The notes: generated from the letters alone by a model not told the origin. DNA of 64,000 nucleotides from a virus (IMGVR_UViG_3300032038_000033:40461-104460); one strand, 5' to 3'; positions 6,318 to 63,998 are shown, counted from the first letter of the stretch. Translations and numbers: made by a program.

Positions 6318-6803
6318 ATGTATGTGAAACTTACAATAAGAGAAAACTATTTCGGTAATGCCTATCTGCTTACAAGAAATGGAGATGAAATAGATGTTTT
6401 AAATCACCCTACTGAAAATTTTGAATTTGAAAGCATATTGTATTTACTTGAAAACTTTGGCACAGAAGAAGATAAGCGATTAGCTTTAGAATATGAACAA
6501 AATCAATTTGACTATTTAAAAGACCAAATTTTACAGAATTACAATGAAAATTATTGTAAAGTAAGAGTGTGGGGAATATTTGCTGATGAAGTGACTTTTA
6601 GAATTACTTCAACAGATAAATTTAATTGGTACAATATTATTGTTGAATTTCTTTTAAAACATAGATATACAAATTCTTTAATTACAGTTGAATCTAACAA
6701 AAATGAAAATTATAGAATTTATTGGAACAAAGTAACTTATGATTGTGCCGTTAATCCGATAAATAAAATGATTTTGGAAAAGAAACTAAAAAGAACAAAG
6801 TAA
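6318..6803 (+). CDS. hypothetical protein, N-terminal LTIRE motif
   Basis: ORF with RBS; member of the [I/L]-x-E N-terminal family. Confidence 0.65.
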   Translation: MYVKLTIRENYFGNAYLLTRNGDEIDVLNHPTENFEFESILYLLENFGTEEDKRLALEYEQNQFDYLKDQILQNYNENYCKVRVWGIFADEVTFRITSTDKFNWYNIIVEFLLKHRYTNSLITVESNKNENYRIYWNKVTYDCAVNPINKMILEKKLKRTK

Positions 6804-6806
6804 AAG

Positions 6807-6860
6807 TTAACATTTATTTAACATTATTATAACACGTTTTACATAAATATATGTTATACT
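6807..6860 (+). promoter_or_regulatory. direct-repeat/N31 promoter of the first tRNA operon
   Basis: TTAACA-N5-TTAACA (6807-6823), 31 bp, TATACT 6855-6860. Confidence 0.8.
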
Positions 6861-6874
6861 AATAAATGTAGAAA

Positions 6875-6994
6875 AGAGTAAATAACCACTTAAACTATTG
6901 TAAGGGTAATTCATAGTTACACTTACGAATAAGGTACTAATTCAACTCGTACTGATTAAAGTTTGTGTGCTTTTATGATAGGGTTATTTACTCT
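6875..6994 (+). ncRNA. structured RNA, closing stem plus pseudoknot (copy 1)
   Basis: AGAGTAAATAACC/GGTTATTTACTCT closing stem; crossing helices 6888-6896/6960-6968 and 6897-6908/6968-6979. Confidence 0.55.
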
Positions 6995-7000
6995 ATATAA

Positions 7001-7075
7001 GGTCGGTTGGTCAAGTGGTTAAGACATTGACCTTTCACGGCAAAGTCACGGGTTCAATTCCTGTACCGACTACCA
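7001..7075 (+). tRNA. tRNA-Glu(TTC)
   Basis: Cloverleaf, loop CTTTCAC, GGTTCAATTCC T-arm, encoded CCA; one anticodon-stem mismatch. Confidence 0.9.
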
Positions 7076-7084
7076 AATCCGAAA

Positions 7085-7214
7085 TTATAAAATGATAGCT
7101 GATTTTATTTGAGTAGGCGTTGCTCACGTTACGAGAAGTCAGTTTTACGTTTCTGGCGCATAGGAAATTTAGATTAACGTGACCAATGGTTGTGAGGTAA
7201 ATCAACCTCCTATG
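7085..7214 (+). ncRNA. two-hairpin RNA with possible kissing loops
   Basis: AGCTGATTT/GAAGTCAGTT and CATAGGA/TCCTATG stems; loop segments TCACGTTA and TAACGTGA are complementary. Confidence 0.4.
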
Positions 7215-7215
7215 T

Positions 7216-7291
7216 TGGGTATTAGCCAAGTGGTAAGGCAGAGGACTTTGACTCCTTCATTTCGCTGGTTCAAATCCAGCATACCCAGCCA
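7216..7291 (+). tRNA. tRNA-Gln(TTG)
   Basis: TGGGTAT/ATACCCA acceptor, loop CTTTGAC, CCA. Confidence 0.93.
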
Positions 7292-7378
7292 TAGCCTATA
7301 AAGGCTTATTCATTTTTAATTTCTCGTTTCTGACAAATCGGAATAGACGGTTGACAGCTTGGACAGACAAGTATTTAT

Positions 7379-7449
7379 GTACCTGTAGTAGGTAGAGCAC
7401 CGTCCTTTTAAGGGGGTTGTCGTGAGTTCAAGTCTCACCAGGTACACCA
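7379..7449 (+). tRNA. degenerate tRNA-Lys(TTT) with truncated D-arm
   Basis: GTACCTG/CAGGTAC acceptor, CTTTTAA loop, normal T-arm and CCA, but the 5' D-stem (GCTCAG) is missing. Confidence 0.6.
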
Positions 7450-7451
7450 TT

Positions 7452-7556
7452 AAGAGTAAAGCGTTTATTCTGCTTAAAAAATTAGTTAACTTCCTTTTAT
7501 TTATTTGATGGATTGTGATTAGCAGAATGAGTTGGTTAACGAATAGCTTTACTCTT
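7452..7556 (+). ncRNA. structured RNA, closing stem plus pseudoknot (copy 2)
   Basis: AAGAGTAAAGC/GCTTTACTCTT; crossing helices ATTCTGCT/AGCAGAAT and TTAGTTAAC/GTTGGTTAA. Confidence 0.55.
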
Positions 7557-7560
7557 GTGC

Positions 7561-7637
7561 CGAGGTGTAACTCAGCTTGGTAGAGTGCTTGGTTTGGGAC
7601 CAAGATGCCATAGGTTCAAATCCTGTCACCTCGACCA
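7561..7637 (+). tRNA. tRNA-Pro(TGG)
   Basis: CGAGGTG/CACCTCG acceptor, loop TTTGGGA, CCA. Confidence 0.93.
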
Positions 7638-7662
7638 TAAAATAAGAAAGGAGTTAAGCAAA

Positions 7663-8085
7663 ATGATTACTTTATTAGAAAGTAAAGATAATGCCTTAAT
7701 AGGTATTTGGTGGTGGACTGGTAATGAAATCATTGGTAAATCTTGTTTAGTTGACAATGGATTTACAGATAATCGTTACATTCAATATTCTGATAAAGAA
7801 AATCATTTAACTCTTTGGAGAAAAATATGCGAAGAAAACAATATACCTAAAGAAATCATAAATAAAGGATATAAGTATTATGAGAGGGGAAGAGTAATCT
7901 ATAATCTTATGTCACAAAGTTTTGAAGTTATTCTTAGTCAAGATTTATATGGTAATAAAGATTTTAAACGTGAGTGTAAAGATTATTTCAATTTATATAA
8001 TTGTCGAGTAGAATTTATTCCATTAAATCATTATTACCGAGTTGATACAGATAATCCAGCTATATTAGATTTTGAATACGATTAA
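7663..8085 (+). CDS. hypothetical protein, N-terminal MITLLE motif
   Basis: AAGGAG RBS before ATG 7663; the longer 7555 start overlaps tRNA-Pro. Confidence 0.7.
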   Translation: MITLLESKDNALIGIWWWTGNEIIGKSCLVDNGFTDNRYIQYSDKENHLTLWRKICEENNIPKEIINKGYKYYERGRVIYNLMSQSFEVILSQDLYGNKDFKRECKDYFNLYNCRVEFIPLNHYYRVDTDNPAILDFEYD

Positions 8086-8133
8086 AGATAGGAAAGAATT
8101 TATTTACGATTATCTTAAAAGAATTACTAAAGT

Positions 8134-8187
8134 TTAACAATTACTTAACATTTATATAACATATTTTTAAATAATATGTGTTATACT
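8134..8187 (+). promoter_or_regulatory. direct-repeat/N31 promoter of the second tRNA operon
   Basis: TTAACA-N5-TTAACA (8134-8150), 31 bp, TATACT 8182-8187. Confidence 0.8.
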
Positions 8188-8366
8188 ATAATAGTAATAC
8201 AAATAAATAAGATTGGTGCTACGGGCTATGACTATGTTTACAACGTTTATGATATAGAGGCATCCGTTCGGGATATCCTCTTAGAGGAGTTGAACTTAAT
8301 AATAGGCTTTGAGTATTACACCAGCAGTAGTTAAATGGAGTTTGATGAACAGCCAATTTTATATAG

Positions 8367-8443
8367 GTGCCTTTAGCTCAGTTGGAAAGAGTAACTGCCT
8401 TCTAAGCAGTAGGTTATTGGTTCAAATCCAATAAGGCATACCA
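8367..8443 (+). tRNA. tRNA-Arg(TCT)
   Basis: GTGCCTT/AAGGCAT acceptor, ACTGC-CTTCTAA-GCAGT anticodon arm, CCA. Confidence 0.92.
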
Positions 8444-8779
8444 TATAAAGATTGTAGTGAGTATAAAGCCATAAGAAATTAAGATTTCAATGTACAAACT
8501 TATACTTTATAACTTCCGTACAAGGTTTAGTGTAAGAGAAATCAGAGATTAGATAAATGGTGTAGCGGTAGCACGTTTCCACTATAAGGAAAAGGGTAGC
8601 AGTTCAAGCCTGCATTTATCGACCAAAAAGAAAATCTCTTAAAATTAGTATCTTATGAAAAACAATGGTAAAATGAGAAGTTACAACTTAGTCGGTTTGG
8701 AGAAAGACTGTAGGTAAGTGATGTGTACACAAATCCTACCCATTGTCCTATAGGTGAAAATCCTATAGCAATCTTTATA
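8444..8779 (+). ncRNA. large structured RNA containing a nested tRNA-like element
   Basis: TATAAAGATTG/CAATCTTTATA closing stem, T-arm-like hairpin CTATAGG-TGAAAAT-CCTATAG at the 3' end, AGAGATT/AATCTCT stem enclosing 8551-8625. Confidence 0.5.
8551..8625 (+). tRNA. tRNA-like element, anticodon loop ACTATAA (nominal TAT, no U33)
   Basis: D-arm GGTGTAGCGGTAGCAC, TTTCC/GGAAA stem, GCAG-TTCAAGC-CTGC T-arm, ACCA end. Confidence 0.55.
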
Positions 8780-8785
8780 ATATAT

Positions 8786-8875
8786 CTATGTGTAGTATTT
8801 ATATCATGATACGCTCTGGCCAGAATATAAATATGATATTGGAAAATGTTAGTTCGATTCTAACCACATAGGCCA
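8786..8875 (+). ncRNA. tRNA-like RNA (acceptor and T-arm, aberrant middle)
   Basis: CTATGTG/CACATAG-G-CCA acceptor; GTTAG-TTCGATT-CTAAC T-arm; no canonical D or anticodon arm. Confidence 0.55.
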
Positions 8876-9108
8876 GCTGACTTGTCAATGTCGTTAAACT
8901 TGATAAGTGACAACAGCTTGAAAGCAATTTGGAAGTTGACGGTTCGTTTCCGTTTTAATGCAGAGTTTGGCTGCGCAATGACCTCTTTGTAAATGTGATT
9001 CCTCCTACTTGTTGCCGCTGTAAGGTGATTTATGAGTAAAAATACCGAAAGATATTTACAGCTATTGATTAGGTAAAGCTATCGTAGAGGATTGCCGATA
9101 GCAGATAT

Positions 9109-9184
9109 GCTGAATAATCCAAAGAAACGAGGTAATTTCCAAAGTGAAATTAATTAATTGGTGTAAGTCCAATATTCAGCACCA
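9109..9184 (+). ncRNA. tRNA-like RNA
   Basis: GCTGAAT/ATTCAGC-A-CCA acceptor, ATTGG-TGTAAGT-CCAAT T-arm-like hairpin, TAATTTC/GAAATTA stem with 6-nt loop. Confidence 0.5.
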
Positions 9185-9331
9185 GAGTTCCAGATAGCTT
9201 TAGAGGAAATACACATAAAATTTAGCTATCATAATTGTGTGTGGCGAGTGATACGTTGCATAAGGCTATTAAGTTAGGTCTGTTTATATCACAATAACTT
9301 ATGACAGTCTGGAAAGACAGACATTCATAAT

Positions 9332-11096: not shown

Positions 11097-11207
11097 CTTA
11101 TAAAATTTATAACGCAAAAAAAAAACAAACAAATTCCTTTCATAACTAACTAATATTATAAAGTAAAATAACTTTATTATATTATAATAATGAAAGGAAT
11201 TTTTATT

Positions 11208-12770: not shown

Positions 12771-12974
12771 ATGAAAGAACAATGGCAGATAGAATTTGCA
12801 AGAAAAATTTGCAGGGAGCGTAAACTCAATTATAAAATAAAAGATGAGGCATTGTATCTGTTTGTGCCTCAGGCAGGTCATTATACGAGGTCGTGTTTTA
12901 GTTTACTTGATTATGATTCTAAAGAAGACATATTGGATATGATAGTAAGAGAAATTTATACTTGGCAGATTTGA
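12771..12974 (+). CDS. 67-aa hypothetical protein, identical copy at 32353
   Basis: Nucleotide-identical to 32353..32556. Confidence 0.75.
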   Translation: MKEQWQIEFARKICRERKLNYKIKDEALYLFVPQAGHYTRSCFSLLDYDSKEDILDMIVREIYTWQI

Positions 12975-17938: not shown

Positions 17939-19186
17939 ATGGTGGTTTATGTTTTAGATATTGAGGGTAAACCTTTAATGCCTACTACAAGATTTGGCAA
18001 AGTAAGAAGAATGTTGAAAAATAAAGAAGCTAAGGTAGTTAAAAGAGAACCTTTTACTATTCAACTTCTTTATAAATCAACTATTTATACACAGCCTATA
18101 AATCTTGGTGTTGATGCTGGTAGTAAGACTATTGGTATTTCTGCTACTACTTCTGATAAAGAATTATTTTGTGCAGAAGTAAAATTAAGAAATGATATAG
18201 TTAATTTAATTGTTACAAAAAGAGAAGCAAGAAGAAATAGACGTAATAGAAAAACAAGATATCGTAAGGCAAGATTTAATAATAGAATTAGTACGAAGAA
18301 AGAAGGTTGGTTAGCTCCTTCTATTCAAAATAAGATTAATTCACATCTTACGATAATTGACAAAATAACAAAAATATTGCCGATTACAAATATTATAGTT
18401 GAAGTAGCTTCATTTGATATTCAGAAAATTAAAAATTCTAACATTCAAAGTAAAGAATATCAAGAAGGTGAACAACTTAGTTTTTGGAATGTTCGGGAAT
18501 ATGTTTTGTTTCGTGATAAGCATATCTGTCAATGTTGTAAAGGTAAATCAAAAGATAAGATACTTAATGTTCATCATATTGAAAGTAGAAAAACTGGTGG
18601 AAATGCCCCAAACAATTTAATTACTTTATGCGAAACTTGTCATACTAATTATCATAAAGGAAAAATTAATTTACCTAAGAATATAAAGCGTGGTATAAGT
18701 TTTAAAGACGCTACTTTTATGGGAATTATGCGTTGGGCTTTCTATAATAAATTAAAAGAAATTTATACAAATATAAAAATGACTTTTGGCTATATTACTA
18801 AAAATATAAGAATTAATAATAATTTGCCAAAAGAACATTATATTGATGCAAGATGTATAAGCGGAAATCCATTAGCTAAATCATTAGGAATTTGTTATAA
18901 ATATAAAAAAGTTAGATGTCATAATAGACAAATACATAAATTTGTTCCTAACAAGAAAGGTATAAGACAAGCTAATCAAGCATCTTATAAAGTATTTGGT
19001 TTTAGACTTAATGATAAAGTTTTATATAAAGGTCAAGTTTGTTTTATTAATGGTAGAAGACAAAGTGGTTATTTTAGTTTAAGAGATATTGATAACAATA
19101 AGATTGGAAATGATAATGTTTCTCATAAAAAGTTAAAATTTTTAGAACACAAAAAATCTTTACTTTGTCAATCTATTGTAATTTAA
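17939..19186 (+). CDS. iscB: RNA-guided endonuclease IscB
   Basis: PLMP, RuvC-I GVDAG, Arg-rich bridge helix, RuvC-II VEVASFD, HNH (CQCC..VHHI..NLITLCETCH), RuvC-III HYIDA. Confidence 0.95.
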   Translation: MVVYVLDIEGKPLMPTTRFGKVRRMLKNKEAKVVKREPFTIQLLYKSTIYTQPINLGVDAGSKTIGISATTSDKELFCAEVKLRNDIVNLIVTKREARRNRRNRKTRYRKARFNNRISTKKEGWLAPSIQNKINSHLTIIDKITKILPITNIIVEVASFDIQKIKNSNIQSKEYQEGEQLSFWNVREYVLFRDKHICQCCKGKSKDKILNVHHIESRKTGGNAPNNLITLCETCHTNYHKGKINLPKNIKRGISFKDATFMGIMRWAFYNKLKEIYTNIKMTFGYITKNIRINNNLPKEHYIDARCISGNPLAKSLGICYKYKKVRCHNRQIHKFVPNKKGIRQANQASYKVFGFRLNDKVLYKGQVCFINGRRQSGYFSLRDIDNNKIGNDNVSHKKLKFLEHKKSLLCQSIVI

Positions 19187-26607: not shown

Positions 26608-28014
26608 ATGAAACATAAGAATACTAATGAAATTACATTAAAAATAAAATATCATACTGATAATTCTGATAGAATTTGTGACTATATAAAGAATTATAAT
26701 AATGTTCTTAGATTTGTTTATAATAGGCTTTATGATAATATTAATCACGAATTATCTACTAAAGATTTATTGTCTGATATTAGAACAATAAATAATATTT
26801 TTGTAGATACTTATTTTAAAAATGGAGCTATCTATGAAGCTCGTTCTATGTTTTCTGATAGTAAAGAACAAGAACATAAAGTTATTTTTGGTGGTAAGAA
26901 ATTGTTTATACAGAGGTGTCAAAATAAAATAAGTAAAGAAGAATTTAATATAAAAAGACTTCACCCTTTACAAATTGTCGGAGCATCATATAATAATGGG
27001 AATTGTAAATTTCAGATTATAAATGAAAATACTATATTATTTAAACCTTGTAGAAATGAACATTTTATATTACATCTTAGTAGTGTAGGCAAAAATTATA
27101 CTAAATATTTAACCAAATTAATTCAAGCTCAGAATAATTGTGATATTGCAATTACATATAAACTTGGCTTAGAATATGTTTATATATCGTTTGATTTAAA
27201 TAAACTAAATAAACCTAAAGAAACAAACTGTATTGATAATCGTATATTTGCTATTGACCTTAATCCTAATTATATAGGTTATAGTGTTATAGATTGGAAA
27301 AATTCTGATAATTTTAATATAGTTAATTCTGGTGTAATATCAAATAAGCCGCTTACAGATTATGATAAATCGGTTATAAGAAGTAGTGATAGTCCAGAAC
27401 ATCATTATATTACTAATAAAAGAAATTATGAAGTTACTAAAATAGCTCACGATTTAGTAAAGTTAGCTAAACATTATCAATGTCAAATTTTTGCCATTGA
27501 AGATTTAAAAATAGAATCTAAAGATAACAAGAAAGGCAATAGATATAATCGGTTAGTAAATAATCAATGGAATAGAAATTTATTAATAAATATTATTACT
27601 AAAGATTGTTTACAAAATTCAATAAGATTACAAAAAGTGGTTGCAAATTTTACTTCTTTTGTCGGCAATTTAGTTTATAGAAGTTTACAATTACCTGATA
27701 TGATTTTAGCTTCTATTGAAATTTCCAGAAGAGCCTATGAATTTTATCATCAATATATTATTAAAGATAAACCTATAACAAAGAATATAGTTTTTAATAG
27801 TTCTGAGTTAGCTAAAATTAGTATTGAAAAGTCATTGGAAGAATTTGGATATACTAAGACTTGTGATTCTATTAAAGATTTATATAATAAATTAAAGAAA
27901 ACGAGATGTAATTATCGTTTTCCTTTGGAACAGTCTTTATTATTAAGACCTAAACAAAGTCTTTTTAGCAAAAACTATATAAAACGAATGATAATTTATT
28001 ATGAATTTAAATAG
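26608..28014 (+). CDS. tnpB: TnpB/Cas12f-related RuvC protein
   Basis: RuvC-I AIDLNP, RuvC-II AIEDL, TSFVG, RuvC-III LPDMILASIEISRRA; no C4 Zn finger. Confidence 0.8.
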   Translation: MKHKNTNEITLKIKYHTDNSDRICDYIKNYNNVLRFVYNRLYDNINHELSTKDLLSDIRTINNIFVDTYFKNGAIYEARSMFSDSKEQEHKVIFGGKKLFIQRCQNKISKEEFNIKRLHPLQIVGASYNNGNCKFQIINENTILFKPCRNEHFILHLSSVGKNYTKYLTKLIQAQNNCDIAITYKLGLEYVYISFDLNKLNKPKETNCIDNRIFAIDLNPNYIGYSVIDWKNSDNFNIVNSGVISNKPLTDYDKSVIRSSDSPEHHYITNKRNYEVTKIAHDLVKLAKHYQCQIFAIEDLKIESKDNKKGNRYNRLVNNQWNRNLLINIITKDCLQNSIRLQKVVANFTSFVGNLVYRSLQLPDMILASIEISRRAYEFYHQYIIKDKPITKNIVFNSSELAKISIEKSLEEFGYTKTCDSIKDLYNKLKKTRCNYRFPLEQSLLLRPKQSLFSKNYIKRMIIYYEFK

Positions 28015-28370
28015 TTTTATATAATTTTTGTATTATAGTGGTAATGGCTTGAATTTTATCGGAGAAAAGAATTATTTAGTTACGGACATAACTACTTACA
28101 TCAATCTTGTAAATAAAGGTCAATTAAATAAACTTCCTTTATATGTAGGCGTTTTAGTTGCTGTTCCTAAAGGTAGTAATGCGAAAGATGAATTAGAAAC
28201 ACCTACACAAATAACTGAAAATTGTGATGTAAGTGATTGGACTTTAATTTATATGAAAACAGTCAAGAAAACATACCGCCGAAAGTCAATGATAGAAATG
28301 CTTTTTTGTATGCTAAGGTCACATTGTAATGGTTTAGCATTTAGTTTACATTTAAAAGGAGAGTAAAAAA

Positions 28371-28649
28371 ATGATTAATATAGATGAAGAATTTTTTGGA
28401 ACATTAGCTATATGTGCTGTAAGATATAGTCAAGGTAGAAGAAGTTATATGCCCGATTTAGTAAGGGGGATTGTAAGACCCCATTTAAGAGAATTAAGTG
28501 ATAAAGACATTGGCGTTCTAATTAATGATTGTAATTATCAAAGAGAGTATGATATTTACGGAGATACAATTATTGATAAGCCTGGTTGGTTAGAATGGGA
28601 AAAAGAACTTTTAGCGGAAAGAGATAGAAGAAATAAAGAGAAGGAGTAA
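28371..28649 (+). CDS. hypothetical phage protein, paralog of 60621
   Basis: CAVRYSQGRRSYM versus CAIRYSLGRETYM; both with YG...IDKP.W. Confidence 0.7.
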   Translation: MINIDEEFFGTLAICAVRYSQGRRSYMPDLVRGIVRPHLRELSDKDIGVLINDCNYQREYDIYGDTIIDKPGWLEWEKELLAERDRRNKEKE

Positions 28650-28651
28650 TT

Positions 28652-29170
28652 ATGGAAACTATAACACAGTATAAAGCAGAAGACGGTAAATTATTTACAT
28701 CTAAACCAGATTGTATGATTTATAATCTTAGTCTTATAGATTGGAATTTGTTTAAAGAAGTTTATTGGGTTCATTGTGTTTATGATAAAGAAAGTCATAA
28801 ATATGTTTCTCACCTAATTAATTTCAATAAGCCCGAATACTACAAAAAGAATACAATGTTTTCTCAACTTTCAAAATCCAATTACTATTTATTTATACCC
28901 AATGAAACTGTTTTAAAAAATTTTTATGATTATAAAGATTATTTTTATCCAGTAGATAATTTTATCATAAGAAATCTAAAAGCAGGACTTAACTATTTAT
29001 GTGATGACAGTGATTATAAATCTGTTTGTAATACTGAGAGTAGAATGAAAGAATATAGGGAAGAATTAAGGGAGATTTCATTGGCGTTAGAAGACTTAGA
29101 AGAATTTAATGATTCAATAATGGCTCATATACTTTCCGAAAAACTTAAAGTAATGAATGATAGGGAGTAG
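28652..29170 (+). CDS. hypothetical protein
   Basis: YKAEDGKLF..C N-terminal motif common in phage ORFs. Confidence 0.6.
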   Translation: METITQYKAEDGKLFTSKPDCMIYNLSLIDWNLFKEVYWVHCVYDKESHKYVSHLINFNKPEYYKKNTMFSQLSKSNYYLFIPNETVLKNFYDYKDYFYPVDNFIIRNLKAGLNYLCDDSDYKSVCNTESRMKEYREELREISLALEDLEEFNDSIMAHILSEKLKVMNDRE

Positions 29171-29247
29171 AGATATATGAAATTATTAGCATTGGCTTAT
29201 AGATGATTTTGTAAAGAATTACTCTTAAATAGAAAGGACATACAAAG

Positions 29248-31326: not shown

Positions 31327-31433
31327 TAACTTTAAATTTTAATGACTAATTATGACAAACAAAAAAAACCAGATAAACTACTAATATTGTAATTAACAAT
31401 TACAATATATAATAAGAAAGGATTTGTTTATTT

Positions 31434-31706: not shown

Positions 31707-31717
31707 TAACTAATTAT

Positions 31718-31762
31718 AAAATAACTGATTTACATACATATGTAAGTCAGTTATTTTTTTTT
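31718..31762 (+). terminator. intrinsic terminator
   Basis: AAATAACTGATTTACATA/TATGTAAGTCAGTTATTT plus T-run. Confidence 0.75.
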
Positions 31763-31773
31763 ATTTTCTAAAG

Positions 31774-34108: not shown

Positions 34109-34147
34109 TAAAAATTTAAAATAAATAAGAAAGGTGTTATAGTAACA

Positions 34148-34519: not shown

Positions 34520-34550
34520 AAAAAATAAATAAGAAAGGATTTTATGAACT

Positions 34551-51452: not shown

Positions 51453-52733
51453 ATGAACAAAGGAAATAGAGTTTTTGTACTCAATATGAGAGGTAAATCT
51501 CTTATGCCTTGCACTCAAAGAAAAGCCAGAATACTTCTAAAAAAAGGAAAGGCAATTATCAAAAAGTATAATCCATTTACAATTCAGTTGACTTATGTAA
51601 CTGGTGAAGCAAAACAAGATTGTAATATTGGCGTAGATACTGGTGCAAAGCATATAGGTATTGCTATTACTTCTGGAGATAAAGTGCTTTATAAAGCAGA
51701 AATAGAATTAAGACAAGATATTAAGTCAAATCTTGACACAAAACGAATTTACCGTAGAAGTAGAAGAAATCGTAAAACAAGATACCGTAAACCACGTTTT
51801 CTTAATCGTAAAAGAACAGATAAATGGTTGCCTCCAAGTCTACAAACAAGAATTAACCATACATTCCGTTGGATAGATATATTTAATACTCTCTTACCTA
51901 ATGCTATTTTACATATAGAAGTGGGTAAATTTGACACAGCAAAGATGATAAATCCTGAGATAAATGGTGTAGACTATCAACAGGGGCAAACATATGGTTT
52001 CTTTGATGAAAGATATTATGTATTTGCAAGAGATAATTATACTTGTCAAGTATGCAAGTGTAAAAATAAAATACTACGAACACATCATATAATTTATCGT
52101 AGTAATGGTGGTACTAATAGAGTAAATAATTTAATTACAGTTTGTACAGATTGTCATACATCGGAGAATCATAAAAAAGGTGGTATTTTATATAAATGGC
52201 AAAAAGAACATAAAAAAGTAAAACAATACAAAGAACCACCATTTATGAATATACTTCGTAAAAGAATATTTACTCAATATCCGTCAGCAGTTATAACTTA
52301 TGGTTCAGAAACAACGCCAAAACGAAAGCAAATGCAATTAGATAAGACACATTATAATGACGCTATTGTTATAAGTGGGATAAACACTATAAAAGAATGT
52401 CCTAATGAGTGGTTACTTATAAAGCAATTTCGTAAAAAGAAGCGTTCATTACACGAAGCAACTGCTCGTAAAGGTAGAAAAGAACCAAATAGAACACAGA
52501 AACGAAATAGTAAAAATACACCTTATTATAAAGGCTTCTATTTGAATGATAGAGTGTTTACATTAGGAAAAGTAGGATATATAACAGGATTTACAAGTGG
52601 TGGTGTATATATAAAAAATCAAAAAGACGAATACATAACATTACCTAACAAAACATATAAACAAGTAGGAATTGCTAATATAAGATTGATAAATCATAAC
52701 AATAATTGGCAATATTTTAGTCAAGTTGGGTAA
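51453..52733 (+). CDS. iscB: RNA-guided endonuclease IscB
   Basis: SLMPC, GVDTG, bridge helix, IEVGKFD, HNH (CQVC..THHI..NLITVCTDCH), HYNDA. Confidence 0.95.
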   Translation: MNKGNRVFVLNMRGKSLMPCTQRKARILLKKGKAIIKKYNPFTIQLTYVTGEAKQDCNIGVDTGAKHIGIAITSGDKVLYKAEIELRQDIKSNLDTKRIYRRSRRNRKTRYRKPRFLNRKRTDKWLPPSLQTRINHTFRWIDIFNTLLPNAILHIEVGKFDTAKMINPEINGVDYQQGQTYGFFDERYYVFARDNYTCQVCKCKNKILRTHHIIYRSNGGTNRVNNLITVCTDCHTSENHKKGGILYKWQKEHKKVKQYKEPPFMNILRKRIFTQYPSAVITYGSETTPKRKQMQLDKTHYNDAIVISGINTIKECPNEWLLIKQFRKKKRSLHEATARKGRKEPNRTQKRNSKNTPYYKGFYLNDRVFTLGKVGYITGFTSGGVYIKNQKDEYITLPNKTYKQVGIANIRLINHNNNWQYFSQVG

Positions 52734-54746: not shown

Positions 54747-55649
54747 ATGAACAATGTATTAGGTAGATATGTAAATGGTAATTATACAGTTACTATATAT
54801 AATGACGGTACAAAGATTAGAGAAAACGATTTAGATAATTTAACACCTACCTTTGCTGAAAACTGTGATGTTAAAATTACAGATAAGTGTGACGGCGGTT
54901 GTGATTTTTGTTATGAAAATTGTACGCCATACGGAGAACACGCTAATTTATCTAAATATAATTTCTTATATAATCTTCATCCATTTACTGAATTAGCTCT
55001 TAATGGTAATGATTTAAGTCATCCACAACTTTTATATTTCTTAAAAATGCTAAAAGAACAAGATGTTATAGCTAATATGACAGTTAATCAGAAACATTTT
55101 ATGTACTATTATAATTATATTAAATCTCTAATCGACAATAATCTTATAAAAGGTCTTGGTATATCATTAAGAAATATAAAAGAAGAAAACTTTATCGAAA
55201 GAGTTAAAACAATACCTAATGCTGTTATACATACTATTGCAGGTATTACTACCTTAGAAGAATATGATTTCCTCGCTCAAAACAAGTGTAAAATACTTAT
55301 TCTTGGATATAAAACAAGAGGCCGAGGTATAGAGTTTAAACAGAAATATGATAAAGAAATAATTGAAAATATATATGGTTTGCATAAGCATTTACCAGCT
55401 TTACTTGGTTTAGCTAATCTTGTAAGTTTTGATAATCTTGCTATAGAACAGTTAAATATAAAGTCTATGCTTACAGAAGAACAATGGCAAAATTTTTATA
55501 TGGGTGATGACGGACAATATACATTCTATATTGATTTAGTTAAAGGTACTTTTAGTCGTAATTCTGTAAGTGATATAAGACATGAAATAGGGAGTAAAAC
55601 TATTGATGAAATGTTTAAGATTATTCAGACAGAAGCGAAGGGTGAATAA
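54747..55649 (+). CDS. radical SAM protein
   Basis: CDGGCDFC (CxxxCxxC); no C-terminal SPASM cysteines. Confidence 0.88.
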   Translation: MNNVLGRYVNGNYTVTIYNDGTKIRENDLDNLTPTFAENCDVKITDKCDGGCDFCYENCTPYGEHANLSKYNFLYNLHPFTELALNGNDLSHPQLLYFLKMLKEQDVIANMTVNQKHFMYYYNYIKSLIDNNLIKGLGISLRNIKEENFIERVKTIPNAVIHTIAGITTLEEYDFLAQNKCKILILGYKTRGRGIEFKQKYDKEIIENIYGLHKHLPALLGLANLVSFDNLAIEQLNIKSMLTEEQWQNFYMGDDGQYTFYIDLVKGTFSRNSVSDIRHEIGSKTIDEMFKIIQTEAKGE

Positions 55650-55819
55650 CAATAGAGCTATTATACACCCAGATGTGTAAACATTAATAAATAAATATTA
55701 AAAATTTTGTTAAAAATTACTATTTACAAATTAAAATTTTTGTGTTATACTTATGTTAATATAATAATTATTAAAAATTTAGTTATTATAAGTATAATTT
55801 TATAAAAGGATTGATTTGT

Positions 55820-56431
55820 ATGAAAACTAAAGATGTATTAAGAGTTTTAGGTATTACCCGTCCTACATTAACTAAATATGTTAAAAATGGAACTATAGGT
55901 ATTACTGAATTAGCTAATGGTAGATATGATTATAACGAAGATGATGTTTATAAATTTTTAAATAAAGATTGTAAACGTAAAACAGTTATATATGCCAGAG
56001 TTTCTACTAAAAAACAAAAGAAAGACCTTGAAAATCAAATAGAAATGTTAAAGCAATTTTGTTTTATGAATGGATATACATTAAGCGGTATCTATTCTGA
56101 TATTGCAAGTGGTATTTCTTTTGAAAATAGAAAAGAATTTTTTACTTTACTTGATGAAGTTATTGCAGGTAAAGTCGATAAAGTTATCATTACTTACAAA
56201 GATAGACTTTCTCGTGTTGGATTTGAATTATTTAAACATTTATTTTTAAGATTTAATACTCAAATTATTGTACTTTCTGAAATCGGCAATACTAAATTAG
56301 ATTCAGAAGAAATATTTGAAGAGATTATAAGTCTTTTACATTGTTATTCAATGAAGTTATATTCAAAGCGAAATAGAGCTAAGATACAAGAGATTATAAC
56401 TAATTCAGAAGAAAGTGATACAAATGAGTAA
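55820..56431 (+). CDS. tnpA: IS607 serine recombinase TnpA
   Basis: N-terminal MerR-like HTH, YARVST, SDIASG, DRLSRVG. Confidence 0.93.
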   Translation: MKTKDVLRVLGITRPTLTKYVKNGTIGITELANGRYDYNEDDVYKFLNKDCKRKTVIYARVSTKKQKKDLENQIEMLKQFCFMNGYTLSGIYSDIASGISFENRKEFFTLLDEVIAGKVDKVIITYKDRLSRVGFELFKHLFLRFNTQIIVLSEIGNTKLDSEEIFEEIISLLHCYSMKLYSKRNRAKIQEIITNSEESDTNE

Positions 56432-57917
56432 TACTGAAAATAATTATATTGTGGAATTACCTTTATTTGTAGAATCCTGGCAAGCAGATATAATTGATAC
56501 ACGATTAGAGATTGGCAGAAAAATTTATAATGCTTTATTAAACATAGTAGTAAAGCGTTACAATGAACTTACTAAAACTAAGTTATATAGAAATCTTAAA
56601 GAACAGTTAGTTTCAGCTCTTAAAATAAAGAATAAAGAAGTTAGTAAAGATATAGGCAAACAATTAAGTGATTTAGAAAAACAATATAAACTCACTAAAT
56701 TTGATATAATAAATGATGTTAAAGAAATGCAACATCATTTTAAATGTCATATACATTCAAGAGTAGCACAAGAAATAGCTAAAAATGTTTATACTGCTTT
56801 GTATTCTGTACTTTATAAAAATGGTAAAGAATTTCATTTTAAGAAGTTTGGAACATTTAATAGTTTGCAAAGTAATGAAATTAATCAGGCTATTATTTTT
56901 AATACAGATTATGTTAGTTGGACAGGATTACAATTAGCTGTAAAATATCCTAATAACATTAAATTTCAACAATATCTTCAATATAATTTATTTGATAATA
57001 TAGATAAATTACGTTATTGTGCTATTATACGGAAATATATAAGAGGTAAACGAAGATACTATGTACAACTTACATTTAGAGGTAATATAAAGCATACAAA
57101 ACGTAAATTAGGTTTTGGTAGAGTAGGTTTGGATATAGGTACATCTACATTAGCAATTTCGTCTAATAATGCTGTTGATTTAATTGAATTAGCAGACAAA
57201 GTTCAGAATGTTGAAAAAGATATTAAAAGACTTCAACGTAAGATGGATAGAAGTAGAAGAGCTAATAATCCTAATAAATACAATGCTGATGGAACATATA
57301 AAAAGAATAATAAAGATAAGTGGAAAAATTCAAACCGTTATATTAAATATAGAAATGAACTTAGAGAATTATTCAGAAAACAGTCTGTTATCCGTAAATT
57401 ACAACATAATCAATTAAGTAATTATATTATATCATTAGGAAATGAATTTTTTGTAGAGACTATGAATTTCAAAGGATTACAAAAAAGAAGTAAGAAAACT
57501 GAAAAGAAAGCTAATGGTAGATATAAATGTAAAAAACGTTATGGTAAATCTTTAGGTAATCGTGCTCCGTCTATGTTGCTTACATTACTTAGTAATAAAT
57601 TAAAACATCTAAATAAAGAACTTGTAAAAATTAATACTCAACAATGTAAAGCAAGTCAATTTAATCATATTACAGGTGAATATAAAAAGAAATCTTTAGG
57701 TCAACGCTGGAATATGATTAATGATAGATTAGTTCAGAGAGACTTGTATTCAGCATTTCTAATATCTAATGTAAATAATACTTTAGATTCATTTAATATT
57801 TCATTATGTAATGAAAAATTTGATAATTTCTTATTATTACACGATAATAAAATAAATGAATTAAAAGTACAAAAGAATTTAACCAATAAATCATTTCTAT
57901 CTTGTATGGGAATATAA
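56424..57917 (+). CDS. tnpB: IS607-associated TnpB
   Basis: RuvC GLDIG, FVETMNF, QRDLYSA; RLQRKMDRSRR helix. Confidence 0.92.
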   Translation: MSNTENNYIVELPLFVESWQADIIDTRLEIGRKIYNALLNIVVKRYNELTKTKLYRNLKEQLVSALKIKNKEVSKDIGKQLSDLEKQYKLTKFDIINDVKEMQHHFKCHIHSRVAQEIAKNVYTALYSVLYKNGKEFHFKKFGTFNSLQSNEINQAIIFNTDYVSWTGLQLAVKYPNNIKFQQYLQYNLFDNIDKLRYCAIIRKYIRGKRRYYVQLTFRGNIKHTKRKLGFGRVGLDIGTSTLAISSNNAVDLIELADKVQNVEKDIKRLQRKMDRSRRANNPNKYNADGTYKKNNKDKWKNSNRYIKYRNELRELFRKQSVIRKLQHNQLSNYIISLGNEFFVETMNFKGLQKRSKKTEKKANGRYKCKKRYGKSLGNRAPSMLLTLLSNKLKHLNKELVKINTQQCKASQFNHITGEYKKKSLGQRWNMINDRLVQRDLYSAFLISNVNNTLDSFNISLCNEKFDNFLLLHDNKINELKVQKNLTNKSFLSCMGI

Positions 57918-60628: not shown

Positions 60629-60911
60629 ATCAATTAAACTAAATTTAGATAATGACTTCTTACAAACAATATTTGTATGTGCGATAAGATATTCATTGGG
60701 TAGAGAAACATATATGTCGACACTTGTAACAGACTATATAACTCCGTATATTCCTGCACTAACTGATAAAACTCTTGGCGTTATTGAAAGTGATATAAGT
60801 AAAGCAGATTATTATGGACACCCAGACATAGATAAACCTGTATGGATGAAATTTTTAGCAAATATAAGAAAGGAACAGGAGAATAGAAGATGCGGAAACG
60901 CAAAACAATAA
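60621..60911 (+). CDS. hypothetical phage protein, paralog of 28371
   Basis: CAIRYSLGRETYM. Confidence 0.7.
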   Translation: MAKSIKLNLDNDFLQTIFVCAIRYSLGRETYMSTLVTDYITPYIPALTDKTLGVIESDISKADYYGHPDIDKPVWMKFLANIRKEQENRRCGNAKQ

Positions 60912-61233
60912 TTCTAATTACATTTAATATGTACTAATGACGGGAAAAGTAAGGTGTTTGATTGATGAATGATAGAGAGTTACTAAAAGATAATATAGAT
61001 GAAATCTTTGAATATTATAAGAACTTAGAAAAAACTATACATAGATTCAATAATTATTTATCGAAGGTAAACATTAATGAAGTAATTGTTGACAAACATA
61101 GTTTTAAAGATTTTGACAAAAGTATCAATATCAACACATCTAAAATTAATGATAAATTAATTTATATTAACTATAATACTGAACATATTCGCCAAACATT
61201 AGAAATACTTGATAGAGAAAGTGAAGATAATTT

Positions 61234-61584
61234 ATGATTTTTCATATAATGGAATATAAAATTATTAACCAAGATATAAAAGAAAAAGAAGTAATTGACT
61301 GGAAATGTAAAGGTAATCTTATAAAATTATACTTAGGCAAAAACGGCGAACAACGTGGAGATGGTTGGTACATAAATAATTATGTGTTAAATGCTGATAA
61401 AGTATATAAAGAATTTATAAGTGCAGAAGCAGTTATTTATATCCCGTGGGATTGTACTATTTTAGAGCCAAACCGAATGTTAGTATCTAAAAATGATATA
61501 AGAGATAGAGTGCTTCCTTGTTTAACTATAGTACAATCAAATGATGATACAGCGGAAATCTACTTTGGAGATAAGATTTTTTAG
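61234..61584 (+). CDS. hypothetical protein
   Basis: IDWKCKGNLIKLYLG..GDGW motif. Confidence 0.6.
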   Translation: MIFHIMEYKIINQDIKEKEVIDWKCKGNLIKLYLGKNGEQRGDGWYINNYVLNADKVYKEFISAEAVIYIPWDCTILEPNRMLVSKNDIRDRVLPCLTIVQSNDDTAEIYFGDKIF

Positions 61585-61674
61585 CTTAAAATCATTTTGT
61601 TATGTGTAATTATAAGCTATTAATCTATATTTATTTGTAAATCTTTTGTTAATACTAAGTAAAGGAAGTATAAA

Positions 61675-62055
61675 ATGAGCAATTTTAACGGCATTTCCAA
61701 GAGTGAAATAATATGGGTAAAATACTTAATAGATGATGAATTTAAGTATATAATAACCAGTGATAAAAGTAGAAATATATACTATTTATATAAATATAAT
61801 ACTAAAGAAAATAAATATGAAAAAACATCTCACCAGTCCAATGACCCTACAAAATTAGAAGCTAAGTATATTAAGTTTAATTCAAATAATACAATAAAAA
61901 CTATTACTCCCAACACTGATACAGCCTCAAAAAAGCGAGGCCGACCCAAGAAAGATAATACAACAATAATAAACCAAACATTAGAAACTCCAAAACTTTC
62001 AACTACTACAAAAACCCTTGTAAATAAAGGGAATAAGAAAGGAAAGTTATTCTAA
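61675..62055 (+). CDS. hypothetical protein with AT-hook-like KKRGRPKK and C-terminal KGKLF
   Basis: Motifs read from the translation. Confidence 0.6.
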   Translation: MSNFNGISKSEIIWVKYLIDDEFKYIITSDKSRNIYYLYKYNTKENKYEKTSHQSNDPTKLEAKYIKFNSNNTIKTITPNTDTASKKRGRPKKDNTTIINQTLETPKLSTTTKTLVNKGNKKGKLF

Positions 62056-62493
62056 AATGAAACTTGACTATATAAGTAAATTAATAAGTACAAAATATAA
62101 AGTTCCGACATACAAACATAAAGAAATGAAAGAACAAACAATAGAAGAATTATATAATATATACGCTAACTCAGTAAAAATACCTGATAAGTATATAGAA
62201 AAACAATTAAAAATAAAACATCATAATCATAATAATATGTGTAATAGAAATCCTATGTCTAAAGTAGTAACAAAGAATAAGAATAAGAAGATAACCTAAT
62301 AATATAAAGTAAGAATTTTTATCCCCCCCGAAGGCTCGGCGTAAAATGTAGATACAAAATACAAAATATAGATATTTAAAATAAAAATAACTATAATATA
62401 ATAATAAATAAATAATATAATAAAACAAACTAATAATAATTATAATGTAATAATTAACAATACAATTACAAACAACACGATTATTGATTATTA

Positions 62494-62678
62494 TGTACAT
62501 ATTATCTGCATATTGTATACTGTATAGAGTATAGAGTGTATATTGAATTTATTGAATCCTCATTTCTTATTGATTATTGATTATTGATTATTGATTATTC
62601 ATTTATTATGCCACTTGAATAATGAATATACTACTTATTTATTTATATACAGTATACAATATGTGGATAATGTGTATA
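62494..62678. repeat. 33-bp inverted repeat enclosing four TTATTGA tandem repeats; DnaA-box match
   Basis: Arms 62494-62526 and 62646-62678; heptamers 62567-62594; TGTGGATAA at 62662. Confidence 0.8.
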
Positions 62679-62789
62679 TAGTACATAGTATGTTAGATGT
62701 TTACATATTGTTGTAAATATGTAGTTTGTAACTAAATTATTAATACGATTTGTTTATAACAATACATTTTGTTTTACAAATATTTACAT

Positions 62790-63045
62790 TAGTTTTGTAT
62801 AATATATACAAGTAACCCCCATAAGGAAAACACAATGTTGTTTGTGTATATTATACAAAAACTGATATAATTCTACTAAATTTTAACAGTTGAACATTGA
62901 TTTAATTGTTAACAACATTAATTAAATATGATTTACACTTGATTTCAGTCTTAAATGTCTGAAATTAGCTCTATTTTTGTATAATATATACAAACGACCT
63001 ACATAGTAAAAATACAAGACCATTTGTATATATTGTACAAAATAC
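62790..63045. repeat. two copies of an about 70-bp hairpin unit
   Basis: TTTTGTATAATATATACAA-N30-TTGTRTATATTRTACAAAA at about 62793-62860 and 62975-63041. Confidence 0.75.
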
Positions 63046-63095
63046 AAAGTACAAAATACAAAAACAATATGTTTTGATATTGGAGATGAATTTTT

Positions 63096-63998
63096 ATGTT
63101 GACTATTAATGAGTACGATTATGGTGGTGCTTATAATATTGACGCTGAGGACTTTTTTAGTAAAGAAGATTTAATAGAATATGGTAATGATATTGCAGAA
63201 AGAATGGGAGATAGATATGATTTCACATTCGAGCTTGCCGAAACTTATATAGAAGACGGAGAATTATATATTAAGTTAAATATAGTAGATGAAGATTATT
63301 TTGTGAGAGCTACTTGTTATCTTGATATGCGTAGAATTAATTTGCCGAAAGACTTATATAAATATGCAGATAATATTATTGAGCAGTTATGTGACGAAAC
63401 TGACGAATTTATAGAATTATATAAAGAAGACTATGATGATAGTCTTAATGAAACATATGCTAACGGTAGTTATCACCCTTGTATAGAAGGTTCGTATTAT
63501 GATGATGAATTAGATAACTTTACTACAAAATTAAATAGATTATATACTAAAGTAAATGATAATAATGATTATACTATATTATATAATTATAATGAAGCTG
63601 ATAATGTAATAGAGTTTATAGCCTTTACTGATATTTACAGTGGCGTTGAAAGAGAAAGAGCTATTATAGATATAGATAAATTTGAAGCTGGCATTACTCC
63701 TGATGAAGTGATAAAGTTATTTAAGATTGTTAAAGAAAGTGATAATCTCACTATTAGAGAAAGTGATGATGAGGATAGTGAGGATAGTGAAGATGAAGAT
63801 AAATTATTAGATGAAGCTCTTAAACTCGGCGACCCTTGGCCTCATTGGACAGACGCTTACAAAGTATTTGGTCTTATACAAAATATGTATAAAGGTAAAT
63901 TAGATGTTATTAATCAGAAAGTAAAAGAATTTTATGATATGTTTAAAGGCATTAAGAGTGTAGATATAGCATATCAAAGATGGCAAAATCAAGAATAA
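63096..63998 (+). CDS. very acidic putative internal head polyprotein (MLTINE|Y; internal SLNE, IVKE, LTIRE)
   Basis: Repeated I/L/V-x-E motifs separating acidic domains. Confidence 0.55.
   Translation: MLTINEYDYGGAYNIDAEDFFSKEDLIEYGNDIAERMGDRYDFTFELAETYIEDGELYIKLNIVDEDYFVRATCYLDMRRINLPKDLYKYADNIIEQLCDETDEFIELYKEDYDDSLNETYANGSYHPCIEGSYYDDELDNFTTKLNRLYTKVNDNNDYTILYNYNEADNVIEFIAFTDIYSGVERERAIIDIDKFEAGITPDEVIKLFKIVKESDNLTIRESDDEDSEDSEDEDKLLDEALKLGDPWPHWTDAYKVFGLIQNMYKGKLDVINQKVKEFYDMFKGIKSVDIAYQRWQNQE

Follow-up and report, generated by a model that had tools for sequence, protein, structure and literature searches.

The capsid targeting sequence (CTS) of bacteriophage T4 is the ten-residue peptide MKTYQEFIAE, and the T4 internal proteins IPI-III are basic. 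Among the T-even phages, the internal proteins are diverse and the CTS is the only part that they have in common (PMC3012670). The prohead protease gp21 cuts after L/I-x-E and has such a site of its own, LIE-9 (PMC9026906). The phiKZ-like giant phages (phiKZ gp175, 201phi2-1, SPN3US gp245) have a diverged homologue of gp21 that cleaves many head proteins, about 10-20, on the C-terminal side of Glu, and the propeptides are thought to target proteins to the head (PMC9026906; PMC5694885, PMC7411985, PMC10052503). Here, we describe a short N-terminal peptide of similar character in an uncultured jumbo phage with 27% GC. The window, which is the whole 64-kb stretch of DNA that was analysed, forms the terminal part of a 104-kb fragment containing replication, nucleotide metabolism and ORFan genes.

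An N-terminal heptapeptide in unrelated proteins

About two dozen (~25) small, unrelated proteins encoded on the 104-kb fragment share the heptapeptide start M-K-L-x-I-x-E, with the variants MV[KR][KR]-L-x-[IL]-x-E and M-[IV]-[TI]-I-K-E; twelve tagged genes form one run directly upstream of the window. An earlier note on this DNA had listed 14 such N-termini in the window, all of which we found at their coordinates, each with a good GGA-type ribosome-binding site (RBS) (Table 1). The pattern is real and in fact stronger than the earlier note had it, but 43770 (a remnant of 32 aa) and 36310 (Glu at residue 16) are weak members, and 35905 has a looser I-x-E form.

Might the pattern have arisen by chance from the I/L/K/N/E-rich composition of an AT-rich genome? 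We sought the tag in the first 12 residues of about 165 proteins, taken from RBS-guided gene calls made for this analysis, and derived expectations from two controls, namely internal windows and a shuffled N-terminal pool. The loose form [IL]-x-E occurs in 43 of 164 proteins against 21-22 expected, which is about twice the expectation, and about half of such matches are therefore random. The matches in QueE, an HNH endonuclease, w241 and w28371 look like hits of this kind, and loose matches in a few replication and metabolic enzymes were counted as chance; the canonical MKLxIxE form was found in no replication or metabolic enzyme of the genome. Longer motifs behave differently from the loose one. 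The form h-x-[IL]-x-E is present in 29 proteins (2.9 expected from internal windows, 7.4 from the shuffled pool) and [KR]-h-x-[IL]-x-E in 15 of 165 (0.3 and 0.8 expected, respectively); of the 111 proteins of the window, 14 have the former (1.6 expected; p = 1e-9). In three genomes, the five- and six-position motifs are 10- to 50-fold more frequent than under either control (p = 1e-11 to 1e-20). We therefore rejected a chance origin for the core tag set, and chance as an account of the pattern is exceedingly improbable.

When 80 tags from the three genomes were pooled, Glu was residue 7 in 36. P1 = E and P3 = I/L (I in 64, L in 16) are imposed by the search motif itself; the P1' residue and the exact P5 residue are not constrained by it, and these are N, S or D in 40 of the 80 tags and L in 37, respectively. 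The tag codons differ synonymously (TTA/CTT/CTA/TTG, ATT/ATA) and the DNA upstream is unrelated, so that it is the peptide on which selection acts. A Pfam search of the tagged proteins returned no matches, and BLAST revealed no relatedness among them except for one pair (w11208/g32813) with a common C-terminal domain, bearing out at this level the earlier description of the proteins as unrelated. The tag is a non-random, peptide-level feature common to unrelated ORFan proteins. With a median pI of 4.9, the mature proteins are acidic, which, in comparison with the basic IPI-III of T4, was counted against a capsid tag.

Table 1. Tagged genes and associated elements, with positions counted from the first nucleotide of the window
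Feature	Position	Strand	N terminus (bar, predicted cut)	Remarks
Terminator-like hairpin, 17-bp stem + T run	4228..4269	+		Encloses ACTAATA copy at 4241
Tagged ORFan, 161 aa	6318..6803	+	MYVKLTIRE|N	No Pfam/PHROG match; mature pI 5.3
Tagged ORFan, 140 aa	7663..8085	+	MITLLE|S	Within tRNA cluster; no family match
Tagged ORFan, 135 aa	10689..11096	+	MVKRLRLNE|S	A-tract and ACTAATA upstream at 10579
Promoter-like cassette	11100..11160	+		AAATTTATAA, A9-10, CAAACAA, ~20 nt, AACTAATATT
Tagged protein, 208 aa	11208..11834	+	MVRKLMIKE|N	C-terminal 65 aa common with tagged genome gene 32813, upstream of window
Tagged ORFan, 131 aa	33713..34108	+	MIIRE|E	Short form; CTACTAATA at 33612
Tagged ORFan, 269 aa	34551..35360	+	MVTIKE|T	Internal VNLIE at aa 136-140
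Tagged ORFan, 168 aa	35381..35887	+	MKLRINE|N	Canonical; internal INE|S, then acidic C-terminal part
Tagged ORFan, 120 aa	35905..36267	+	MVRLIKE|D	Looser form; cf. MVRLIE, genome gene 30049
Doubtful member, 191 aa	36310..36885	+	IIRE ending at residue 16	Three [IL]-x-E sites, aa 99-113
Tagged ORFan, 139 aa	43221..43640	+	MVKKLKLRE|S	Upstream cassette as for 11208 and 43770
ORF, 32 aa	43770..43868	+	MVRKYNKNRNLRE|S	Probably remnant of a tagged gene; behind same promoter-like cassette
Tagged ORFan, 120 aa	45937..46299	+	MIIIKE|A	CTACTAATA at 45897
Tagged ORFan, 149 aa	53164..53613	+	MILYIRE|F	
Tagged protein, 300 aa	63096..63998	+	MLTINE|Y	Internal NLTIRE|S, nt 63747-63761

Relatives, prohead protease and domain boundaries

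The same tag is found in two relatives, G001 (66 kb; 15 consecutive genes) and G002 (272 kb; about 16 genes), and is absent from one 52%-GC relative and from 65-kb phages in which the clamp loader is the only common gene. G002 is the nearest complete relative (CheckV 96%), its clamp loader being 69% identical to that of the studied phage; compared with it, the tagged cluster is an insertion, and the tagged gene set is hypervariable between relatives. Neither head genes nor an S77 protease were found in the 104-kb fragment, which is 58% complete according to CheckV. The protease is probably missing because the contig is a fragment, and the link to a protease therefore rests on G002, which was counted against a capsid tag. 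There, an S77 protease (PF03420, 39 bits against a cut-off of 27; phrog_207, 5e-37) adjoins a gp23-type capsid gene. The protease starts with tag-like h-x-E sites, MKSKLVE|STPKSLRLVE|S, and the capsid protein has LLE64|A65, the expected cleavage site, about 22 residues ahead of the conserved VVPNLIA block. An S77 protease and a gp23-type capsid protein are also encoded by GXN1, SP-15, LIS04 and HSE3, so the gp21-like protease that the earlier note proposed to look for does exist in G002 and in cultured relatives. Three small proteins of the cultured Streptococcus phage GXN1 start MRL[VI][RK]L[TN]E and are encoded in the head module, right after the capsid gene; the protease start of this phage reads ...MLLTE|N. 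Little or none of this tag family was found in the other S77-bearing phages G003, G009 and SP-15, and the presence of the protease therefore does not predict the arsenal.

The motif is not confined to N-termini. Internal repeats, reported earlier for three proteins, were confirmed in 63096 (LTIRE, aa 218-222), 36310 (IKLIE/INE/IIE, aa 99-113) and 35381 (INE). In the 63096 protein, the internal copy is followed by a linker, which is acidic, and by a conserved C-terminal domain; close homologues keep both motifs, and a 45%-identical homologue has lost the internal motif and lacks the middle domain. Across the tagged proteins overall, internal motifs are not enriched (2.0 versus 2.3 per 1000 aa).

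For one 260-aa cargo domain (genome gene 33592; 417 homologues), h-x-E precedes the domain in 63 of 89 cases, whether at the start of a protein or within a fusion; in fusions, the boundaries read KLTINE|KIS and KLRINE|KIS, and 34 of 49 fusions have a tagged N-terminus too. Homologues of the domain are fused to ART-PolyVal (PF18760), PF15738, YafO, GNAT, rubrerythrin and other domains. Its gene adjoins the protease gene in another jumbo phage, and some homologues have a leader without Glu (MYRYLRPIMS|GIS). A methyltransferase-like domain behaves likewise, with KLSIRE|AEQKYN inside a G001 fusion and MKLNINE...KLSINE|VEQKYN in G002. Two cargo domains are thereby tagged at the N-boundary both standing alone and fused, which supports the polyproteins proposed in the earlier note; cleavable multi-domain proteins gain support for at least two cargo domains from these comparative data. 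Judging from the tag-delimited fusions, multi-domain cargo may arise anew by the joining of modules, each of which retains a cut site. The lack of global enrichment, the pattern in G003, G009 and SP-15 and the Glu-less leaders of the 260-aa domain were counted against a capsid tag.

DNA upstream of the tagged genes

ACTAATA, which had been taken as the mark of a second promoter class often accompanied by an upstream A-tract, is an oriented, enriched intergenic element kept in two genomes, usually 20-110 nt ahead of start codons. On the sense strand it has 16 intergenic copies against 5.5 +/- 2.4 expected, with no enrichment of the reverse complement, and seven of the eight copies of CTACTAATA are intergenic against 0.2 expected. 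Its association with tagged genes (Fisher p = 0.0025) holds in this genome only; it is absent in G002, where ACTAATA is no more frequent in structural regions than elsewhere. The element is real, but its assignment to a late or structural promoter class is not supported. The copy at 4241, described as preceding holin-like/structural genes, lies inside a terminator hairpin, and the genes behind it map outside the main structural modules of G002. The A-tract is present at 10579, 11149, 43159 and 43692 (also at 31380) but not at 33612 or 45897. Further copies of the promoter-like cassette end at 43165 and 43698, and looser copies occur at 10579 and 31380. TATAAATA was not enriched, and a late-promoter signature was not found. 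Most tagged genes stand in tight runs with an RBS alone upstream; they sit behind at least two promoter types, surrounded by the replication module and ORFan genes. This location, the promoter types and the lack of a late-promoter signature were also counted against a capsid tag.

Proposed function and comparison with known systems

How might the tag work? On balance, we consider it likely that MKLxIxE is a capsid-targeting and processing tag resembling the T4 CTS, and the tagged proteins are probably loaded into the capsid and clipped there; the end of the tag fits the L/I-x-E rule of T4 gp21, as had been proposed. The heptapeptide would be a lineage-specific, portable N-terminal propeptide that docks its protein on the scaffolding core of the prohead under assembly. 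The S77 prohead protease would then cut after the Glu and free the tag (P5 = L, P3 = I, P1 = E), while the acidic mature protein would stay inside the head, and at least some mature proteins may enter the host along with the DNA. In multi-domain members, the extra copies at domain junctions would be cut to give separate modules. What is established here comprises the tag and its statistics, the fact that relatives conserve it, its occurrence at domain boundaries, and the S77 and gp23-type genes of the relatives. From this we infer docking, cleavage, packaging and ejection, as well as any role in anti-defence.

Because the tagged genes have early-looking ORFans and the replication module as neighbours and are outside any head module, with no late-promoter signature found and with mature proteins that are acidic where those of T4 are not, the tag could instead be a docking or processing strand for a non-prohead partner, such as a phage chaperone, a hub protein or a protease that activates proteins at a set time or turns them over, and the proteins would act unpackaged in the infected cell. 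We regard this as unlikely, given that the motif is the gp21 rule and resembles both the N-terminus of the relatives' protease and the capsid cleavage site, that the tagged genes of GXN1 lie within the head module, and that one cargo domain adjoins the protease in another jumbo phage.

Two further explanations assign no role to the peptide, and both are distinctly improbable, to the same degree. Bacterial genes in general often have Lys at position 2, and the tag codons (AAA, TTA, AGA, ATT, AAT, GAA) are A/U-rich; the conserved start could thus be a translation or mRNA feature, an unstructured initiation region raising the expression of small accessory genes. However, L, I and E are kept at i, i+2 and i+4 while the residues between them change, as does the choice of synonymous codons, highly expressed enzymes share the RBS but not the tag, and the motif, without Met, recurs inside fusion proteins exactly at domain boundaries. 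Alternatively, the shared 5' end, with promoter, RBS and first codons, could form a cassette for recombination or regulation by which accessory genes are shuffled, with the peptide as a passenger, as in the T4-type promoter-stem-loop cassettes. Three MV[KR][KR] genes (11208, 43221, 43770) do have both the A-tract/ACTAATA cassette and the tag, and the insertion of the tagged cluster relative to G002 fits as well, but most tagged genes follow closely on one another with nothing but an RBS in between and no conserved DNA beyond the 21 nt of the tag, and the internal copies at domain junctions would be left unexplained.

If the tag is a capsid-loading signal, the DNA-accompanying proteins of uncultured giant phages could be listed from sequence alone. 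Such proteins would act ahead of any phage gene expression and would therefore be prime candidates for anti-restriction and counter-defence. The tag would in that case also offer a ready-made way to bring foreign proteins into the heads of Gram-positive-host phages, a use already made of the T4 CTS in E. coli. More tentatively, and with some doubt, we suggest that the tag may let the whole packaged and injected proteome be read in an uncultured clade of ~250-300-kb phages of low-GC bacteria: at least 25 fast-turning-over, mostly acidic proteins plus tag-delimited polyproteins, including methyltransferase-like and leucine-rich-repeat cargo, as a first-minute reservoir for host takeover and anti-defence far above the internal-protein set of T4.

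The idea of a capsid-loading tag is itself not new, T4 being the precedent. As with the CTS that gp21 removes from IPI, IPII, IPIII and Alt, a short N-terminal propeptide is the sole common part, it ends in hydrophobic-x-Glu following the gp21 cleavage rule, the relatives' protease belongs to the same Pfam family (S77) and stands beside a gp23-type capsid gene, and the gene set is hypervariable between relatives. In contrast, inspection shows that only the initial M-K and the final I-x-E of the ten-residue CTS correspond to the seven-residue MKLxIxE; T4 has a handful of bearers and this 104-kb fragment ~25; mature internal proteins are basic there and acidic here; and the motif here also stands within multi-domain proteins. 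The lineage also differs from T4 in its PolA/DnaB-type replication genes and in a Shine-Dalgarno usage typical for low-GC Gram-positive hosts. Cleavage sites of phiKZ-like phages are of the form S/A/G-x-E and occur at a distance of tens to hundreds of residues from the N-terminus, whereas a uniform heptapeptide with Ile at P3 and Leu at P5 stands at the extreme N-terminus here. The polyvalent proteins of phages and conjugative elements, reportedly described by Iyer, Burroughs, Anand, de Souza and Aravind in 2017, are said to combine unrelated effector-like domains in arrays that are presumed to accompany the DNA. A possible likeness lies in the fusion partners of the 260-aa domain homologues (ART-PolyVal, YafO, GNAT, rubrerythrin). 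No Pfam polyvalent domain was found in the tagged proteins of this genome, and neither a MuF-type anchor nor a dedicated processing peptidase domain was seen in the tagged cargo. Unlike the polyvalent proteins, the cargo here is mostly single-domain, each protein with a tag of its own.

An N-terminal heptapeptide on a phage contig

The window is the terminal 64,000 nt of one 104,460-nt virus contig with a GC content of 27% and nearly all of its genes on the + strand. Genes were called as the longest ORFs, with the start picked by a GGA-type ribosome-binding site (RBS). The contig encodes a replication module (DnaB-type helicase, primase, SSB, PolA, sliding clamp, three clamp-loader subunits and a UvsX/RecA-like recombinase), the 7-deazaguanine pathway, NrdD/NrdG, an MFS transporter, an NAD-dependent ligase and ThyX, together with eight tRNAs, two RRXRR-HNH (IscB-like) genes, one IS607-like pair and about a hundred small ORFans. 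Genes for terminase, portal, capsid, protease and tail were not found among its scanned ORFs, and CheckV gives it 58% completeness; the contig is therefore a fragment of a larger phage.

All 14 N-termini that the earlier note had assigned to a tag family are present in place, and most of these members stand, the weak ones being 43770, a 32-aa remnant, and 36310. Loose [IL]-x-E matches within the first 12 residues exceed expectation by only a factor of two (43 against 21-22). Over the same residues, h-x-[IL]-x-E (h, hydrophobic) occurs in 29 of the 165 proteins, against 2.9 expected from internal windows and 7.4 from a shuffled N-terminal pool, and [KR]-h-x-[IL]-x-E occurs in 15, against 0.3 and 0.8, respectively; within the window, the five-position motif is found in 14/111 proteins (1.6 expected). 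The enrichment over shuffled N-termini on which the family was to be judged thus holds for the longer motif, and it is this motif, with the consensus M-K-L-x-I-x-E, that is the true signal, not loose [IL]-x-E. The densest run, 12 consecutive tagged genes directly upstream of the window, includes the N-termini MKLRINE (three times), MKLRIKE, MKLQIKE, MKLTIKE and MKIKIKE. Among 80 tags pooled from three genomes, 36 have Glu as residue 7, 64 have Ile at P3 and 37 have Leu at P5; half have N, S or D at P1', the position that follows Glu. None of the replication or metabolic enzymes of the contig bears a canonical tag, and the loose matches on QueE, an HNH endonuclease and a clamp-loader subunit look like chance.

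The bearers had been described as unrelated, and BLAST agrees, finding no mutual relation with the sole exception of one common C-terminal domain. Pfam and PHROGs searches with 20 tagged proteins returned only two sub-threshold matches (PHROG 33786, function unknown, and DUF494); a megablast search of cultured phages with 15 kb of sequence gave no match, tblastn of one tagged protein gave a single weak match, and the ESM Atlas returned only viral clusters without names. With a median pI of 4.9, versus 6.3 in other proteins (Mann-Whitney p = 3e-5), the predicted mature parts are acidic; the cargo domains identifiable in relatives include a methyltransferase-like domain, BspA-type leucine-rich repeats and DUF29.

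Coordinates of features on the contig and in two other phage genomes
Feature	Numbering	Coordinates	Remarks
Run of 12 tagged genes	whole contig	27791-35660
PolA-type DNA polymerase	whole contig	6440-9246	two ORFs, HNH endonuclease gene between
RRXRR + HNH (IscB-like) protein	window	17939-19186	415 aa; 41% identical to the next
RRXRR + HNH (IscB-like) protein	window	51453-52733	426 aa
Helix-turn-helix/resolvase-like gene (203 aa) overlapping transposase-like gene (497 aa, phrog_506)	window	55820-57917	looks like an IS607/TnpB-type element
67-aa protein, two 100% identical copies	window	12771-12974; 32353-32556	spacing 19.6 kb
Orthologue of tagged gene 30049 (whole-contig numbering)	272-kb relative	about 56020, upstream of 55171-56022	ACG at expected ATG start; tag intact (in-frame KLNINES); good RBS
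Gp23-type capsid gene	272-kb relative	174479-176324, minus strand	two Pfam-matching pieces, about 570 nt between
Stand-alone 260-aa-domain gene	253-kb jumbo phage	170922-171737	between portal region and S77 protease

Tags in relatives and at domain boundaries

A pattern search for the tag led to a 66-kb IMG/VR contig (IMGVR_UViG_3300031555_003048), about 70% identical to this contig at the nucleotide level, which carries 15 consecutive tagged genes, part of them orthologous to those studied here and part different. The 91% completeness that CheckV gives this relative is not credible, because it has no structural genes; the figure probably derives from 65-kb phages with the same replication module. 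A second relative, found via its clamp loader (69% protein identity), measures 272,222 bp (CheckV, 96%), is collinear with the contig over the latter's first 46 kb and has about 16 MKLxI[NRK]E genes. Relative to this genome, the 12-gene tagged cluster is an insertion, flanked by the clamp-loader genes and by the conserved block that comes next, and a homologue was found there for only 60 of the 165 proteins of the contig; the tagged set therefore turns over quickly. The tag family is absent from a 52%-GC, 201-kb relative and from a 36%-GC, 253-kb jumbo phage, and no MKLxIxE start occurs in five complete ~65-kb phages with which the clamp loader alone is shared.

The C-terminal 260 residues of gene 33592 (whole-contig numbering) constitute a domain with 417 homologues, on contigs of up to 313 kb. 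Among the best 120 homologues, its start could be placed in 89, of which 63 have h-x-E directly before it. Forty of the 89 are stand-alone proteins (e.g., MKLMIRE|KVS and MLKLRIAE|KVS, where the bar marks the predicted cut), and 49 are fusions, in which the junction (e.g., KLTINE|KIS, KLIIKE|KIS or KLRINE|KIS) has no Met; 34 of the 49 have an N-terminal tag as well, and the partners include GNAT, rubrerythrin, ART-PolyVal and YafO. AlphaFold2, run on the stand-alone domain with a 15-sequence alignment, gave a mean pLDDT of only 56, with values below 50 for the N-terminal 19 residues. In the 253-kb jumbo phage, which belongs to another lineage, the leader of the domain is basic and without Glu (MYRYLRPIMS), and may represent a different address style.

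A methyltransferase-like domain forms the C-terminal part of a fusion in the 66-kb relative, with KLSIRE|AEQKYN directly before it, and is a 192-aa protein in the 272-kb relative, where it starts MKLNINE...KLSINE|VEQKYN; the alignment of the two starts exactly at the motif. The internal repeat that had been noticed in gene 63096 is borne out by close homologues, in which NLTIRE|S and the N-terminal tag are both kept. These comparisons of the 260-residue domain, the methyltransferase-like domain and 63096 support the prediction of tag-delimited polyproteins, an idea that draws on such particular cases because internal motifs show no global enrichment in tagged proteins.

Intergenic motifs

ACTAATA, proposed earlier as a promoter class of the tagged genes, occurs 16 times on the sense strand of intergenic DNA versus 5.5 +/- 2.4 in dinucleotide shuffles, mostly 20-110 nt upstream of a start codon; its reverse complement is not enriched. 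Seven of the eight copies of CTACTAATA are intergenic (0.2 expected), as are 14 of 24 in the 272-kb relative (1.0 expected). This oriented intergenic enrichment in two genomes makes the motif a genuine regulatory candidate. A subclass consisting of AAATTTATAA, A9-10, CAAACAA, about 20 nt and then AACTAATATT sits ahead of the MV[KR][KR]-type genes 11208, 43221 and 43770. The proposed link with the tag is weak: on this contig, 6 of the 12 tagged genes that have an upstream gap lie behind ACTAATA (5 of 56 others; p = 0.0025), whereas the 272-kb relative shows no such association. In the latter genome, ACTAATA is no commoner in structural regions than elsewhere, and comparison of structural genes with the others yielded no T4-like late motif (TATAAATA is rare) and no k-mers that part the two sets. 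A copy at 4241 had been placed before holin-like/structural genes; it forms part of a terminator-like hairpin stem, and the pair of genes that follows maps outside the main structural modules of the 272-kb relative. Window-wide, the commonest intergenic motif is the extended -10-like TGTTATACT/TGTTATAAT, upstream of many genes, with 24 occurrences of TGTTATA (6.4 expected); it represents a promoter class separate from ACTAATA.

Head proteases of relatives and the reading of the tag

The earlier note had expected a gp21-like protease elsewhere in the genome, and the 272-kb relative, if not the contig itself, has one. This 618-aa protein matches Peptidase_S77, the T4 gp21 family, at 39 bits (cut-off, 27) and PHROG 207, head maturation protease, at 5e-37, and its gene adjoins a Pfam Gp23-type capsid gene and portal, sheath and baseplate genes. 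Its closest cultured relatives are in Streptococcus phage vB_SagM-GXN1 (GXN1), Listeria phage LIS04 and Bacillus phages SP-15 and HSE3, with T4-like phages ranking after them. The split of the capsid gene points to an inserted intron or endonuclease, of the kind annotated in SP-15.

The protease begins MKSKLVE|STPKSLRLVE|S, directly ahead of its catalytic domain, and LLE64|A65 in the capsid protein lies some 22 residues upstream of the conserved VVPNLIA block, with LLE|S in GXN1 and MFE|T in SP-15 at the matching place. T4 capsid protein gp23 is cut at Glu65-Ala66. In GXN1, the protease starts ...MLLTE|N, and directly after the capsid gene the head module encodes three small proteins that start MRLVRLTE, MRLVKLTE and MRLIRLNE. 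T4 gp21 cleaves after L/I-x-E and itself contains a LIE-9 site (PMC9026906). By homology, the L/I-x-E specificity assumed earlier is therefore plausible for the lineage.

What, then, might the tag be? Its Leu, Ile and Glu are kept at alternate positions while the residues between them are free, which is a peptide-level pattern, and the codons vary synonymously (Leu, TTA/CTT/CTA/TTG; Ile, ATT/ATA). Many tagged genes lie head to tail with an RBS as the only spacer. A feature of translation initiation is improbable, since the three residues are retained as their codons change. We give equally little credit to a shuffling cassette, against which it speaks that the upstream DNA of most tagged genes is mutually unrelated. 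Codon variation and unrelated upstream DNA likewise led us to reject a DNA-level repeat as the source of the tag for most members. Chance is rejected for the core set and retains a barely perceptible likelihood. A docking or processing tag without a capsid role seems to us unlikely, if less so than these others.

In T4, the internal proteins carry an N-terminal capsid targeting sequence (CTS) of 10-19 residues, in which residues 4 and 7 act in targeting and residues 8 and 10 in processing (PMC9026906), and the internal proteins of T-even phages are a diverse set with the CTS alone in common (PMC3012670). For a mechanism of this kind in the present phage, which rests on homology and on sequence logic, cleavage, packaging, ejection and function are all predicted, and the contig has no head module of its own. 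On balance, we favor the reading that the tag would be a capsid-targeting and processing tag like the T4 CTS, with a short sequence distinct from it, an unusually large and fast-changing cargo, and fusions delimited by the tag.
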